Origin: Octopus vulgaris
Lineage: Eukaryota
Direction of reading: 5' to 3'
Length of the DNA: 64,000 bases
Assembly: GCA_951406725.2 (NCBI GenBank)
Contig: OX597818.1
Coordinates: 49,352,001-49,416,000 of the forward strand
The position numbers and the translations under genes are program-made. Each line of letters begins with the position of its first letter. Position 1 is the stretch's first letter. Below, piece after piece: positions 173-55,876 of the stretch. Under the pieces are notes generated by a model. It worked only from the letters and a program-made list of their open reading frames with translations, ran no database searches and was not told the origin of the DNA.

Positions 173-600
173 CTTAATATATCATTCTTAATAGATAACA
201 AATAAAACTAATAACTATTTTGTTATATAAAATTGTAATTAAAAATTCTTGTAATTATTAATTGAATATTATATAATTTTTAAAAGAAATAGGCATAAGT
301 TTTTAAATGAAAATTAACTAGATTTAATCCTTTTTTCCAAAGCATCATCAAACCAAAAATGCCCAGGTTTTTTTCAACTACTCTTGCTTCCAAGAATGTA
401 AACAGACATATCGAATAATGGTGAGTAATTCAAAGATTTCTTCAAAAATAGTTAAATTTGATAGGCACAAGCATAGGCAACCATGTGGTTTTGGGTTCAG
501 TCCAACTGCACAGAACCTTAGGCAAGTGTCTTCTACTATAGAGTCTAGCTCACCAATGCCTTATGAGTGAATTTGATAGGTGGAAGCCATGGAAACTCAT

Positions 601-7450: not shown

Positions 7451-7879
7451 ATGCAATCTAATTCATGTACATTCATAAAGTAAAAGTTTATTTTTACATT
7501 GTAATTATTATCAAAACTCCGTGTCTTAGTGTCTCTTTTTAAATGTATGTTTATTCTTCATTTCTTTATTTATATGATCGTTTAGGTGAAGCCCTTACAA
7601 CTTAACAAACCATACTTAGCTACATTTTTAAAGATTCCATGTAAGTAATGTGACAGTTCTATTTTGAAGGGAAAAGAACTTACAAACATTTTCCAAAATT
7701 TCAATTATTTTATTTAGAACTTGATTTGAAAAGATAAAATGACATTTTCTTGAATGAAATTGTTCTGTTGTGGTTGATCTTCCTTCTTGTTTACTCTTAG
7801 GTTAGCCTCATTCAGTAAATTCATGATAAAATCCTTTCCAGCCATGATTATCCTGTATGTCTTTGATTACATAGCTTGA

Positions 7880-8892: not shown

Positions 8893-8973
8893 GTAACTGG
8901 GACACTTCTTCAGAGCTTCAAGCAAGACAAAACTTGTGTGGAGATTTTGAACAGATAACTACACTGGCACCAG
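8893..8973 (+). CDS. Probable internal exon (juxtamembrane ectodomain) of the SEFIR-domain receptor gene
   Basis: Acceptor ttttgtatcaag and donor cag|gtgaga; 81 nt, phase 1-1; reads (G)NWDTSSELQARQNLCGDFEQITTLAP and joins the TM exon in frame. The acceptor is weak. Confidence 0.5.
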
Positions 8974-9109
8974 GTGAGAAAAGCCACTTAAATTTTGATT
9001 ACTGAAAATTTAGATTTAAATTCTGTTACTTTTGTTTTATTAAAGAAACTGAAGCAAAATAAATGGATTTGTTTTTAGTTTTAACAATTAGTATTCCAGT
9101 TCTTTTAGA

Positions 9110-9312
9110 CGGCAAGCTAGCAGAATTTTGCTTTGGAAAATGCTTTGTGGCATTTTGTCTGACTTAATGTTCTGAGTTCAAATTCTGCTGAGATTGACTT
9201 TGCCTTTCATCCTTTTGGGGTTGATAAAATAAGTACCAGTTGAGTACTGGGGTCGGTGTAATTGGCTTGCCCCATCCCCTGGAATAGCTGTCTTTGTGAC
9301 AAAATTTGAAAC
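9110..9312 (+). mobile_element. SINE family A (alternative 3' tail)
   Basis: Head plus core gcctttcatccttttggggttgataaa; similar copies at 4767-4980, 5472-5662, 38140-38350 and 44265-44475 (-). Confidence 0.75.
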
Positions 9313-10041
9313 AAATATTCTAGTTCTTTGAAAAATGGGACTACCCCAACAAGTTAGAATAATTCTGTGTCTGCAGAACAGTCGAACTGGTTGAGTACTT
9401 GACAGACATTGGTAACTTTAATGTAATTCTCAAGTTGACTTGTGGGACAAGAATAGGCCTTTACATTAAGGTACAATCCATCAGATGTCACAATGTAAGT
9501 GGAAGAGTGATCCATAAGCATTTTCACTCTTAAAATATTCCCTAGGCAGAATTAATGCAACTTATAATGGTACCAGGTTGGCCCTATGAATTATGGGTAC
9601 AATTCTTCTAACAGGTTTCGATATAGTTTATGTCACCTTATTCACTCACAAGAATTTTTCTTCTCACTTCTTTGACCAGAAACAAAGCACTATGTCCATA
9701 TTTTTAGGAAGACCCTCTGAGACCAGTAAGACTTAAATAGTTACAAGTGGACAGCTGTAAGTAAAATGAGCATTTTAGAGAACCAACATTTAGGGAGTGG
9801 ATATTAGGGTGCAGGGCCTAAGGTGATGGACACAATATTGGAGGTGAGAAGAAGAAAGATGAGTGAGTCCTGAGTAGAATGAAACCAGCCAACTCTGAGG
9901 AAAAGAGGTTGTTGTTGTAATAGTTGAAAAAATAAAGAAAGGAAACAGAATGTCTGTAAGCCAGAGCTTGGAGTGTATTAGTGTGTGACTTCATGCCAAT
10001 CAACCACATCACATTTTTCTTCATCTTTTTTTTCTTTTAGA

Positions 10042-10390
10042 TAGGCACAAGCATGGTTGTGTGGTAAGAAGCTTGCTTCCCAGCCACATGGTTCTGGGTT
10101 CAATCAACTGTGTGGCACCTTGGGCGAGTGCCTTCTACTATAGCTTTGAGCCAACCAAAGCCTTGTGAATGGATTTGGTAGAAGAGAACTGAAAGAAGCT
10201 CGTCATGTGTGTGTGTGTGTGTGTGTGAGACCACCACCTGACAACTGGTGCTGGTGTGTTTACATACCTGTGACTTAGTGGTTCAGCAAAAGGAACTAAT
10301 AGAATGAGTGGGGTTGATTTGCTCATCTTAAATTCTTCAAGGTGGTGCCCCAAAATGGCCACAGTCTCATGATTGAAACAAGTAAGAGAT
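10042..10390 (+). mobile_element. SINE family B, diverged
   Basis: Head, CORE-like block and tail recognisable. Confidence 0.8.
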
Positions 10391-10395
10391 AAAAT

Positions 10396-10666
10396 CATGC
10401 TGAGAGTTGCTGAAGTATGAAACAAACTGCCGGCATCAGTTGTTAGTTGTCGGAGCACTGCATCCTTCAAAACTTCCATGCTACCCGAGATTTGTCAACA
10501 CTACACCTGATTTTTCCCCCCCTCCATACACACGCAACCATGTATCTGACTCATACATTGTTCGCTTTCCAGACATTTTTACATTACTGCATGTACTTTA
10601 TACGCACTTTTGACAAGTTGTGGTGCACCTGAGCACTGTATACAATAATTTCATTATTATTATTAT
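10396..10666 (+). mobile_element. CR1 LINE 3' fragment
   Basis: Matches ~6040-6311. Confidence 0.85.
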
Positions 10667-10741
10667 TTTAAAGGATCTTGGGTGCCTAAATGTGTAGCAG
10701 TGACCCTATCTCTTTCCTTCTACACTAATAAGTTACTTATA

Positions 10742-10923
10742 CAGGGTGGTCCAAAAGTCAACACACTCTGGAATTGTCAAAAACATGCTTCAATTTTTCT
10801 AAGATAAATAAAATGATGAATGCATGTGTTCTTGTACATGATGAGTAAAATAGATAATGATAATAACAACATGATATAAATAAAATCTCATATGTTTTGG
10901 TGCATGAATTTTGACCCACCCTG
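10742..10923. mobile_element. Small Tc1/mariner-type MITE
   Basis: ta|cagggtggtccaaaagtca ... tgaattttgacccaccctg imperfect TIRs. Confidence 0.55.
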
Positions 10924-10972
10924 CTGATATTTGATATGTTGAATTGATATTTTTTCTTTTGGTATATTTTAG

Positions 10973-11107
10973 TGAGTTTTATTAATACAACCAGTCAACC
11001 TTATTTTTCCACAACACGCATCCAGCCCCTGAAAGGCGGTAGTCAGGGCTCAGCTATTTGGATTTTGATCCTTGTTTTGATTTTATCTTTAATTATCTGC
11101 TTATTTA
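10973..11107 (+). CDS. Transmembrane-encoding exon of the SEFIR-domain (IL-17 receptor-like) gene
   Basis: Pyrimidine tract plus ttttag acceptor, donor a|gtaagt; 135 nt, phase 1-1; reads VSFINTTSQPYFSTTRIQPLKGGSQGSAIWILILVLILSLIICLF. With the next exon it gives a hydrophobic helix followed by QRRK. Missed by the ORF track. Confidence 0.85.
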
Positions 11108-11577
11108 GTAAGTATATCTTTGAAATGTGATGATTATAATTTATAATTTTTATAAATTTAGAAGCTGTTTCAGTTTCTGTGTGAATGTGTTTAAAGTAGA
11201 ACAAACACAGAATTAATTGATGATTAATAAGTCTGAATGAGAATTTTCCGTTTATCTTTCAATTCAAAGAATTGCTGCTGAGCACTTTATGTTCAGCAAA
11301 CTAACAATTTGGTCAGTCCACTGCTTTGATAAAGGCCCTATGAATAATAATGTGTAAATGTTGTTCTTTTTTGTTTTAACCCAACATTTACACATTTTTA
11401 TATAAACCATGATAAAGCTAGAAAGTATAACATGGAAATGTTAGGTTAAGTAAAACCCTTTGGAAAAGTCAAAGACTGTCACACGGTTATCCAAGGAATT
11501 TTTTAAACCCAGTATTTACATGCTATTATTTATAGCTTTATCTACTTTGAGTTCCATCATTAAAAACTATTTCCCAC

Positions 11578-11914
11578 ATAACTCTGAGTACCCTTTCAAA
11601 CTCCACCTGTTTAACATCTGTGGACATGTTTACAAAGTCAGAAAACAGCACAGCTCCCATGACTTCAGGAAACATTTTTTTCACGCTGAGAGTTGCTGAA
11701 GTAAGGAACAAACTGCCGGCATCAGTTGTTAGTTGTCGGAGCACTGTATCCTTCAAAACTACCATGCTTCCTGAGATTCGCCAACACTACACCTGATTTT
11801 CTCCCCTCCATACACACGCAAGCATGTATCTGACCCATACACTGTTCGCTTTCCAGACATTTGTACATTACTGCATATGCTCTATACGCACTTTTGACAC
11901 TGTATACAATAATT

Positions 11915-11944
<30 letters not shown>
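11578..11944 (+). mobile_element. CR1 LINE 3' fragment
   Basis: Matches ~5935-6311, (ATT)n tail. Confidence 0.85.
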
Positions 11945-11945
<1 letters not shown>

Positions 11946-12283
11946 AATATTCACAAGATTCAAATACGCTTAGAATTTTCATTGTTTTGTTTCAACTGTT
12001 GTATGCTAAGATTAAGCACTTAATGTTTAGTTTGTAATCATACTTGTCTTCAGAACACAACTAAACATAAACACCCATGCTAGCATGGAAAGCGGACATT
12101 AAATGATGATGATGATGATGATGATGATGACATGTGGTAAAAAAATTTGTTATCACTTATTGTCAATGTATTGCAGTTTATTGTTATCAATGTATTACAT
12201 TTCTGTTTCTTGTTTTATGCTTTTTTTTCTTTTCTTTTCTTCTCATATTGAAACGTAAATTTTCTAATCTGTCTGATTTACAG

Positions 12284-13215
12284 TGATACTTCAAAGAAGA
12301 AAATGTTTGAAATATTTACAGTGCACCAACGTAAACCAGGACACAGCTCAGCAACAAGGCTTGGTTATATGTTTCCCTCACCCCATGGAGCACTGTGCTG
12401 CCGTCAAAGAACTAACTATAATGCTAAACAGTTATACAAGTTTACATGTAAGAAGTTCCCACAAAATGAAATTAAAAAGAAACAAATTGCTTAAGAAACA
12501 AATTCAACATGTTTATGACTATTTCAACACCTTCATTATTGTTCATTCAGATGGTCTGTATTATCACTGCCAGAATGAGGGGAAAAATGGAATTGGTCAA
12601 GAAATGGCTGATTTTACAATTGAGCTTGTTAAATTCTGCACTAAAGATAATATAAATCAATCAAAGAACATTTTTCATGTAACATTTGAAGATCTGAGTA
12701 ATTTTGAAAATTCTCAGTTATGCTCAGATTCCCAAGAAAATATGTATTACTTATACAGGCCAAATGTTTTGGCAAATAATAATAGTCTGGACTTGAATCA
12801 AATTGAAAATCTCTTGTGTGACATAAATGACCAACAGTCTGAAATACAGCCAAGTAGATCCCATGTAAAATTCCAAATGAACTGGAAAGAAAGTCGAGAA
12901 ATACAAAATTTAAATGATGCTTTAGTTTCTCGAGACTATAAACAAAGGATGTTTCCCAATTGGTACACTGACATGTTCCCCAAATTTGAAATTTATGATA
13001 CTTTGTCTAATTTCAATTTTGACAAGAATTCAAAAGTTTCTGACTGTATGTCATTTGAAGTATATAAAAAAAATACATTTACAAACTCTAGACTGAACGG
13101 AAGTGACAGCGTAAGCCATACTGTTTCAGAAGCGGGGAATGATCAGTTATCTGCTTTCTTGGAGAGGATTAATGAAAGAAATGACAGAAATGTACAAAGT
13201 ACAATTGAGTGTTAG
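12284..13215 (+). CDS. Terminal coding exon: cytoplasmic SEFIR-like domain plus C-terminal tail, IL-17 receptor-like protein
   Basis: Acceptor tttacag after a pyrimidine tract; 310-codon open frame. GLVICFPHPMEHCAAVKELTIMLNSY, FIIVHSDG and YYL...IENLLCDI resemble SEFIR motifs (V-x-I-x-Y...H...V..LA..L; IIVxS-x-G). Domain call made by eye. Confidence 0.75.
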
Positions 13216-13816
13216 TGGATAATTTGCTGATCAAATATTTCAGAGGACACAAGCCAGATTACAAGCTTGATGTTACAATTCATATAAGAGTGGCATTTAA
13301 GAGAACCTATTACATGGGCATGGTAAACATTATGAGTATTTTTGTACTAGAAATGCTCAGACAGCTCCCTAATAATTGTTAATAACTTCTTTTATCTAGG
13401 CAACCAAATCAGGAGTGGAAGTGGGTATACCAAATGCATGGAGGTGAGTAAGGATGAGGTGAAGAAATTTCAGGGAGCTACTACTTCTACAGATAAAAGA
13501 AGGGTTTCTTTTTCAGAATGAAGGGCAGACTGTATGATGTTTATGCATGGTGATAAAACATGAGCCTCTCGTAAATGCAGAGATTTTTGTGAGGACTGGA
13601 AAGACATGCAGCAAACATGTTCAACTGAATGCGTGATGTTAGTGTGTACAATTAATACAATATAAATGAACTGGAAGAAAAGTCAAATATAAAAGGAATC
13701 AGACATGGTGTGCAAGGGAGAATATTGCACTTGTCTGGGCAAGTGATGTCCATGGATGATGACTGTTGTATATATATGATAAGTACTGAGCAATCAAAGT
13801 AGATGCAACACAGATG

Positions 13817-14130
13817 GAAATCCGAGCTGTGCTCTGATTTCCAAAGCAATATCTATTACTTATACAGGCCAAATGTTTTGGGAAATAATAATAGTCTGGA
13901 CTTGAATCAAATTGAAAATCTCTTGTGTGACATAAATGACCAACAGTCTGCAATACAACCAAGTAGATACTATATAAAATTCCAAATGAACTGGAAAGAA
14001 AGTCGAGAAATACAATATAGTTTCTCGAGACTATAAACAAAGGATGTTTCCTAATTGGTACACTGACATGTTCCCCAAATCTGAAATTAATGATACTTTG
14101 TCTAACTTCAGTTTTGACAAGGCTTCAAAA
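13817..14130 (+). pseudogene. Partial duplicate of the SEFIR exon (copy of ~12707-13035) with a frameshift
   Basis: Near-identical to the YYLYRPNVL...FDK segment; 16 nt (aatttaaatgatgctt) replaced by ta, net -14, breaking the frame. Confidence 0.85.
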
Positions 14131-53351: not shown

Positions 53352-53571
53352 CAACTTCATATAAAAACCAACTTGTACCATTTGGACCCATCCAGCCTAT
53401 ACCTGCATGAAAATGGGCATGACTAATAATAGAAAAGTTGCAGTACATTTTATATGGGGTGGGGTCAAGGTTTCTGATTAAATCAATGACAGTTTAAAGA
53501 AATGTGTTTGAAATTATTATTAAAGTGGTGATATTTGTTATTTAATTGCATTTTGTTTCGTTCTGTTTCAG

Positions 53572-54279
53572 GATGTAATTGTGATGCATTGCACTATGGG
53601 AAAAGATGAGTATGATAAATCAAAAGGTGGAATCCTCAAAGCAAGTACATTAGAACAGACTGACAATCAACTACCCATCGGTGGTAAAATAGATGTGGCC
53701 TGGGACAATTATAGTCCGATCAATAGTTTTAAAGACTCTTCAAAAATCTCACTTAATAACAGCATAGGACAAGTAGCACATGAATTTCACAGGAATAATA
53801 GTCAAAGTAAAGAATTTGCAAGTGGATCCAGTCGATGCAAGAACAAAAGAATTCCTTCCCAAAACTCTGTGAAGTCTTCATTATCAGCTATATTATTAGA
53901 GAATAATGATGATCACCTTGACAAATCAAATGGTCCACTGGTTCCAGATTCCATTGATGTTAGTCCTCTTGATAACAACTCTGATAATGAAGATTTGGGG
54001 CTGACAACACATCGGCCTGATATCAATGCTAACCAAAATATTGATTTGGTCAGGTCATCTAATTTTTCGAATACAATTACTAACTTGTTTAATCAAAGTC
54101 ATAGGAAAAAGAAAGACAACAGCAGTAAATATCATGGAGAGGATATGTGGAGAAATAACAGGAAAATTGTCGGCAAAGGGAAAAATGATAATTTTTACAA
54201 TCAGTCTCCTTCACCAATAACATCTAATAGTTACATAATGCATGACCAAGAGAACCTTGGTTATCAACAACAACAGCAA

Positions 54280-54310
<31 letters not shown>

Positions 54311-54767
54311 AACAACATAACTATGAGCAATATGTTATTCCCCAAAACTTTGCCTATACAGCAGATGATATTTACCGAAAGGCACTATCTGTTGGATCTT
54401 ATCCTAATTTAATGACTCATAAGAAAGTCCCTGAGATGTTTAATTTTGTGAATGCATTGGTGTCACCACCCTTTTTTGCACGTTCATATCACCCAGAACA
54501 TAGGCAGCAATCACATGCATCATCCCAGTTTTATTCTGCTATCCCACCTGATGGAAATGGTTGTCTTAAGATACCACAGCAGTCTCCTGGACATGGCTAT
54601 CATTCAAACTCTATTCATCAGACCCAAGACTACATTAATTCTTTCTATGTTGACAATTCTCAGCATTTAGATAGCAGACTTCATTGTCCTAATGTAGATT
54701 ATCCTGATCAACATTACCAGTTGCATCAAAATGTTAATGTCCCGACAACCCGCTGTCATGATGCTTG
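53572..54767 (+). CDS. Large N-terminal exon of an unidentified protein: Ser/Asn/His/Gln-rich disordered region with Q17
   Basis: Acceptor ttctgtttcag; ~398 open codons (first ATG at 53584); donor tg|gtgagt, phase 2, so the ORF-track stop lies in the intron; mixed CAA/CAG polyQ at 54265-54315. Confidence 0.85.
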
Positions 54768-55876
54768 GTGAGTTTCTTCCATTCAATTATTTTTTCTTTA
54801 TATTTCTGGCTTATACTGTTACATTTCTGTCATGTTTTTTCCATACATCATTCCGTGATGCACCTGGACCCATCATCAGCAATGTTTCCTGGGGTCTTTC
54901 AGCATCAGACACCCTCATCCAAGTGACCCAGTTGGGGTTGATCAAACCCAGCTTGTGTCCAGCATGTTTAGTCTTTTACTTGTTTCAGTCATTTGACTGT
55001 GGCCATGCTGGAGCACCACCTTTAGTCGAGCATATCGACCCCAGGACTTATTCTTTGTAAGCCTAGTACTTATTCTACCGGTCTCTTTTGCTGAACCACT
55101 AAGTTATGGGGACGTAAACACACCAGCATCGGTTGTCAAGCGATGTTGGTGGGGACACATACACACACACTCACACACACACACACACACATATACATAT
55201 ATATGACGGGCTTCTTTCAGTTTCCGTCTACCAAATCCACTCACACGGCTTTGGTTGGCCCGGGGCTATAGTAGAAGACACTTGCCCAAGGTGCCACGCT
55301 GTGGGACTGAACCCGTGAACCATGTGGTTGGTAAGCAAGCTACTTACCGCACACCCACTCCTACGCCTACATTTCATATAAATTAGCATTTTACTTGTGA
55401 TCCTTGATCTCATAATATTTCTTGAAAACCACATGGTCACTCAATCTACTAGAAATAGCACCCAAATCTCCTTTAAATCATTCCCTGCCATTTTAACACA
55501 GCAAGTGCACATTAGATAATGTAGTGATACATACACTACACCTAAAAAAAACAAAAACCCAGTTGGGGTGGTCTTTACCTTTGATCTATAAGTTTGCTCA
55601 GCTGGGGCTGACCCAGTGTTAAACATACTGTGAATTTCACCAATAAATGATTTAATGATTAAAAAATTAGGTTTTATCTTGTCTTTGTAGCTATTATCAA
55701 TATTGTTCATTCAGAACTACTTATAATGAAGACAAGCTGATTGTTTTTATTGGAAATTCTGCAATAAAGTTGTTCATCTGAAAGTTAATGTCTTTATAAT
55801 AAGTTTGTAAGGGCTTCTATCTCAGTTTTAGCTAATTGATATTTCTATCATTTTTGCTTTTGTTAAATAGCTTTAA

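Follow-up and report, generated by a model that had tools for sequence, protein, structure and literature searches.

A candidate IL-17 receptor gene of Octopus vulgaris and a tandem paralog that appears to share its signalling exon by gene conversion

Here, we describe a gene lying across the start of a 64,000-nucleotide (nt) stretch of the Octopus vulgaris genome (assembly GCA_951406725.2, contig OX597818.1, positions 49,352,001 to 49,416,000; hereafter the window), which probably encodes a single-pass receptor for an IL-17-type ligand, with a predicted double-FN3 ectodomain, a likely divergent SEFIR domain, Act1/CIKS-like signalling and an exon gene-converted with that of a tandem paralog. 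What is new is the tandem twin with its homogenised signalling exon, the gene itself having already been modelled elsewhere but left unnamed. Coordinates without a contig label are window positions, and C5, C3, C11 and the like denote contigs of the same genome (G000).

The receptor gene spans C5:49313614-49365215 on the forward strand, as mapped on 200 kb of upstream sequence, and consists of 11 exons encoding 621 amino acids (aa), with all ten introns bounded by GT-AG; 606 of 620 residues are identical in O. sinensis LOC115212086. It starts 38 kb before the window, and the three exons joined in an initial annotation of the window, starting at 8893, 10973 and 12284, prove to be exons 9 to 11 (Table 1). 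That assembly holds up: each exon has an AG acceptor and is entered in phase 1, the first two (81 and 135 nt) end in GT donors, and once joined the three read as a 381-aa frame whose only stop is at its end, the last exon alone being a 312-aa stop-to-stop frame. Evidence for expression comes from spliced contigs, no sequencing run being recorded as RNA. The intron at 11108-12283 is spliced out exactly in RNA-type contigs from two studies (X5 record 17 and X2 record 10), and a DNA-like run (X16 record 7) continues into it. Of the two joints at which spliced reads had been proposed as a check, that between 11107 and 12284 is the one present in these contigs, while that between 8973 and 10973 is seen only indirectly, through depth (X2 record 10 extends a further 423 letters in the upstream direction, and the coverage of 7586-7640 and 8893-8973 is explained by the depth of this contig, 7.25) and through an identical junction sequence in RefSeq models from two further Octopus species. 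The receptor gene is real, spliced and expressed. Its last exon matches an O. bimaculoides protein at 92%, the cluster of which holds ten RefSeq-type models, all 'uncharacterized'. RefSeq gives the same label, with no family name, to the orthologs of receptor and paralog, LOC115212086 and LOC115212051 in O. sinensis and LOC106868483 and LOC106868403 in O. bimaculoides, and no mention of these four locus ids was found in the literature searched.

The encoded protein has the topology of a receptor, with one transmembrane (TM) helix and an N-terminus in exon 1 that is hydrophobic as judged by eye. The hydrophobic helix and basic QRRK stop-transfer noticed initially are both present, the top 19-residue hydropathy window (Kyte-Doolittle 3.37) lying within the 10973 exon with QRRK next to it. 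The Thr/Ser-rich stalk described alongside them lies for its main part at aa 261-294 (11 of 34 residues Ser or Thr); the 8893 exon holds its start but belongs largely to the Cys-bearing ectodomain end (5 of 26 Ser or Thr).

The next gene upstream, in the same orientation, is the tandem paralog (C5:49237892-49306559, 11 exons, 592 aa), which the initial annotation could not see; 580 of its 592 residues are identical to O. sinensis LOC115212051. Receptor and paralog share 58 of 221 aligned residues in the ectodomain (26%) and 255 of 285 in the cytoplasmic part (89%). A 94% identical block runs from the predicted first SEFIR strand, within the exon, to a point some 590 nt inside the 3' untranslated region (UTR), where 561 of 576 nt are identical; synonymous divergence (dS) is 0.13 in the block, versus saturation in the ectodomain (proportion of synonymous differences, pS, 0.77). 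Because the likeness thus extends to synonymous and UTR sites, protein constraint cannot explain it. The UTR part is an old repeat, only 65-82% identical to its other listed copies, and both versions of the block are present in RNA contigs.

For other species the comparison uses protein models, DNA being taken from this genome only. In O. bimaculoides, the cytoplasmic parts of the two paralogs are 92.6% identical, and those of orthologs are 91.2% identical to this genome; in the ectodomain, paralogs share 22-24% and orthologs 83-98%. Paralogs are therefore as close as, or closer than, orthologs in the cytoplasmic region only, and this, together with identity at synonymous and non-coding sites and a mosaic ancestry, is the pattern by which a gene-conversion pair is recognised. 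Across six sequences from three Octopus species, five sites group strictly by species (eight loosely) and six by gene. In simulations under two rate shapes, the gene tree never yielded five species sites and the species tree never yielded six gene sites (0/1000 each), and the approximately unbiased (AU) test does not separate the two trees (p 0.55 for the gene tree versus 0.45), as expected for mosaic ancestry. The site patterns fit no single tree, so exchange after speciation is needed. On these sequence comparisons, the block has most likely been kept alike by repeated partial gene conversion, some of it after the split from O. bimaculoides.

A single exon replacement before the Octopus species split, or an error of assembly, is an alternative; the block's abrupt 5' edge within the exon and the broken third copy of the exon at its 3' boundary would suit either. 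The O. bimaculoides sequences, moreover, are predicted models whose assembly is unchecked, which counts against recurrent conversion, and the later RefSeq model P0005 fuses both genes. One pre-split event, however, predicts only 0.35-0.41 strictly species-grouped sites where five are seen (0/1000 simulations). Also counting against this alternative are the clumping of receptor-paralog differences (the longest stretch of identity is 147 nt, p 0.003), a UTR divergence of 2.6% versus 11.7% at synonymous sites, and the presence of both versions in RNA contigs. We consider both variants quite unlikely, and repeated conversion remains our preferred account of the block. The third copy has nine sites in common with the paralog and four with the receptor, and is likely a relic of an earlier exchange.

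Among known systems, the pair most resembles mammalian TLR1/TLR6 (PMC2077338). Both are tandem immune-receptor paralogs in which the N-terminal ligand side follows orthology and the C-terminal signalling side is homogenised, the TLR conversions being independent in different species. Unlike TLR1/TLR6, the octopus pair is of SEFIR rather than TIR type and its ectodomains are only 22-26% identical; and whereas the TLR tract covers LRR16-19 and the TM segment, the octopus tract starts at the first SEFIR strand, excludes the TM and juxtamembrane segments and enters the 3'UTR. No description of conversion in IL-17 receptors, or of these octopus genes, was found in literature searches judged mostly from their listings.

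Several further details of the pair were recorded. The broken third copy supplies the end of one O. sinensis RefSeq isoform, P0004, which may be an alignment artefact, since no GT-AG could be seen by eye at the switch. Newer O. bimaculoides models, P0003 and P0005, join the two paralogs into proteins of 1096-1149 aa that have two TM helices; this fusion is probably a fault of annotation. At 12460-12468, in the loop of the lost LD, the paralogs read HKM and NEI, a difference that is gene-specific in all three species despite conversion. An in-frame skip of 53 residues in the first FN3 domain, present in P0009 and P0012 (paralog exons 2-3, two species), may be a conserved splice variant that alters the ligand site.

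The initial annotation had suggested looking upstream for a signal peptide and FnIII-like exons; the exons upstream of its three encode the hydrophobic N-terminus, a candidate leader, and two predicted FN3 domains. The ectodomain was modelled with AlphaFold2 from the O. sinensis ortholog (five sequences), giving two beta-sandwiches at a predicted local distance difference test (pLDDT) score of 55.9. Foldseek returned 384 matches to this model at E<=0.001, and among the matches listed all are FN3-containing proteins; IL-17RA is among them (4hsa_C at 3.3e-5, rank 31, and 3jvf_C at 4.3e-5), and VIA-align superposes the model on an FN3 domain with Z 9.1 and a root-mean-square deviation of 2.5 over 88 residues. 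The double FN3 of IL-17 receptors is thus predicted by the model, but is not specific to them.

Since such pairs are generic, a class I/II cytokine receptor (an FN3 pair with a JAK-binding Box1) has to be weighed, as does a TIR-type receptor. IL-21R, IL-4R and the prolactin receptor are among the top Foldseek matches of the ectodomain, and an FPHP after a hydrophobic run, which we take to resemble Box1, was counted in favour of a class I/II receptor. There is, however, no W-x-x-W that could form a WSXWS-like motif in the ectodomain of either receptor or paralog, the P-x-P is not kept in the relatives P0013 and P0014, and the cytoplasmic part is predicted as a domain of alternating strands and helices. 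Any receptor without a SEFIR domain would fit the failure of the Pfam SEFIR profile described below, but runs against the family matches of the Atlas and, for a TIR domain, against scores on a TIR profile that stay at shuffle level. Both forms of this alternative are, in our estimate, highly improbable.

Given the architecture, the cytoplasmic part is very probably a SEFIR domain, although we do not call its membership proven. The first box and central IIVxS-x-G strand claimed for it can be read in the last exon, as LVICF..H...V..L...L and IIVHSDG, and the reported absence of the second-box LD and W is equally real. SEFIR is the first-ranked Atlas family for the receptor protein (0.85, 177/256 features) and for a 25%-identical relative (0.81), and the receptor's best ten of ten family matches fall in the SEFIR family or clan. 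A profile of eight other SEFIR-type exons of this genome, none from the receptor's own family, aligns with it end to end (positions 6-241, at a score attained by 3 of 500 shuffles) and takes in the helical extension and the tail motif; the extension of those other exons aligns in turn with that of IL-17RA. All four family cores beat their shuffles on the SEFIR profile (0-8 of 500), against none of four on a profile of ten TIR sequences from the same genome (91-474 of 500), and hhalign of the domain cores gives 61% for SEFIR versus 0.1% for TIR. By profile, at low scores, the domain thus appears closer to SEFIR than to TIR.

Several results weigh against this assignment, and against an IL-17 receptor as a whole. 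Neither the receptor exon nor the full-length orthologs, the paralog or any relative matches Pfam SEFIR (PF08357) or TIR, so that the profile check proposed for the spliced protein came out negative, and neither the domain nor its profile drew more than chance matches from PDB sequences. The AlphaFold2 model of the cytoplasmic part (six sequences) has a pLDDT of 36 and no Foldseek match at E<=0.001; on this model the best VIA Z, 4.2, belongs to an unrelated protein, with the IL-17RA/RB SEFIR at 3.0, although its strand and helix order fits SEFIR and both TIR and SEFIR chains occur among the weak rows of the fold search. The alignments are shallow because, apart from Octopus orthologs, the homology searches turned up just two unnamed clusters, at 23-28% identity. 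Atlas scores below 0.9 are leads only, the SEFIR profile scores are low (5-9 bits), the hhalign match spans only the first 65-70 columns, and the reverse test is clear for one of the eight SEFIR exons, itself Pfam-negative, and marginal for two. No TRAF motif was found when looked for in the cytoplasmic tail, and IL-17RA ranks only 31st in a fold search that recovers FN3 pairs of every kind. The initial reading of a fast-evolving receptor for the IL-17 family is thus supported in part, by the hydrophobic leader, predicted double FN3, TM helix and SEFIR-over-TIR profile of the protein, and falls short as regards Pfam.

Divergence alone is not new, since many invertebrate IL-17 receptors have degenerate FN3 and SEFIR domains that escape domain models, as already described in PMC11087794, in two supplements of which Octopus is present only as Torso. 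The octopus receptor resembles the IL-17 receptors covered by the sources compared (human IL-17RA/RB, PDB 4NUX, 9OT1 and 4HSA; bivalve, PMC8353272; invertebrate, PMC11087794) in its type I topology, predicted double FN3 and SEFIR-like domain, and in a helical C-extension ending in W-aromatic. It differs from them in lacking LD and W and in its twin with a homogenised signalling exon, and from six mussel receptors, which score 1e-11 or better, in lying under the Pfam cut-off.

The missing LD and W, the domain's place under that cut-off and the example of IL-17RB, which is described in PMC12828022 without ACT1 contact, would also suit a receptor of the same type that does not signal or inhibits, either as a decoy or as an IL-17RB-like co-receptor stabilising a complex without touching Act1. 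We regard this as unlikely: all three species keep an intact frame, dN/dS between the paralogs is about 0.37, and the predicted alphaC and C-extension helices are retained. The decoy or altered adaptor binding first proposed from the missing residues is a weak idea because Pfam-positive octopus SEFIR exons on C11 likewise lack both; the relatives P0013 and P0017 retain LDL, and the Act1 hot spot in IL-17RA is placed by PMC4014126 on helix alphaC, not on the alphaB' surface.

A receptor for an IL-17-type ligand would have many candidate partners. The expansion of octopus IL-17 ligands noted in the initial annotation, one of the larger ones for this family, is evident here: IL-17 domain matches number at least 64 and lie largely in two arrays on C1 (14.7-15.0 Mb and 131.7-132.5 Mb), about twice the 31-36 IL-17 genes given for O. 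bimaculoides in PMC8353272. The genome also holds eight Pfam SEFIR matches and further relatives, a profile of five of which matches IL-17RA/RB at 6e-10. About ten further terminal exons are of SEFIR type, seven over the Pfam cut-off and several clustered on C11, which from their sequences likely represent an unannotated expansion of IL-17 receptors. PMC8257504 reports an expansion of IL-17 in octopods but a specific identification of IL17R in nautilus; the SEFIR-type exons suggest that octopus receptors were missed, a point that its figure or supplements may qualify. The ligand might instead be another cystine-knot protein (a Trunk/PTTH/CFSH-like hormone), given that shrimp CFSH hormones bind IL-17 receptors (PMC11087794) and that other FN3 pairs match the ectodomain at least as closely as IL-17RA does, but with so many IL-17 domains in the genome, and receptor and ligand families both expanded, this is very unlikely. 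As a separate observation, 21 TIR-domain matches (L060-L079) lie on C1, C3, C5, C8 and C29, some of those on C3 and C1 in tandem clusters.

With an IL-17-type ligand, and by analogy with mammalian IL-17 receptors, an IL-17 dimer would bind the FN3 pair, receptors would then form a hetero-oligomer, SEFIR-SEFIR contacts would nucleate or recruit the genome's Act1/CIKS-like adaptor, and a TRAF6/NF-kB output would follow. The paralogs would supply two ligand-specific heads feeding one common output. More broadly, it is conceivable, though we put it a little below an even chance, that the expanded octopus IL-17s are read by a hidden dozen or so fast-evolving receptors missed by annotation, the pair described here placing diverse heads on one signalling exon kept uniform by conversion; if so, ligand diversity would be combined with a single output. 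The receptor, its twin and the roughly ten SEFIR-type exons provide named receptor candidates, which makes ligand-receptor pairing testable, and the pair is a natural experiment in which two heads at 22-26% identity sit on one signalling domain.

Table 1. Positions of the receptor gene, its predicted domains and related features in the genome
Feature	Position	Strand	Basis or remark
Exons 1-6	G000:C5:49313614-49349273	+	before window start
Exon 7 of 11, second FN3-like domain, CxxxC motif	343..420	+	tblastn, AG/GT ends, in frame
Exon 8, last strand of second FN3-like domain	7586..7640	+	tblastn; coverage at spliced-contig depth
Exon 9, Cys-bearing ectodomain end and stalk start	8893..8973	+	frame, ortholog mapping, contig depth
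Exon 10, Ser/Thr-rich stalk and TM helix (helix from about 11053)	10973..11107	+	frame, spliced contigs
Exon 11, coding part: TM end, QRRK, entire cytoplasmic region, stop	12284..13215	+	frame, spliced contigs
Block homogenised with paralog (G000:C5:49305687-49307138)	12346..13807	+	93.9% over 1468 columns
Likely divergent SEFIR domain; strands and helices predicted to alternate, betaA begins at GLVIC	12358..12850	+	profiles, Atlas, model; Pfam negative
Predicted helical C-extension, ends W-aromatic	12895..12975	+	alignment with extension of the genome's other SEFIR exons
C-terminal tail motif LE.INE.ND, common to C11 SEFIR genes	13147..13190	+	alignment
Third copy of last exon, partial and broken (14-nt deletion), within transcribed 3' region	13830..14130	+	89% to receptor, 91% to paralog
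Further SEFIR-type exons (L038-L056)	C3:176455798; C11:22.5 Mb, 34.4-34.9 Mb, 60.5 Mb (weak extra); C30:9143980
Act1-like exon (L045)	G000:C5:38190873-38191133		matches C-terminal half of human Act1/TRAF3IP2 SEFIR, E 1.3e-8

Elsewhere in the window, a 415-aa open frame at 53524-54771 (+) contains a poly-Q run, has no Pfam match over the cut-off and is probably a large exon of another gene.

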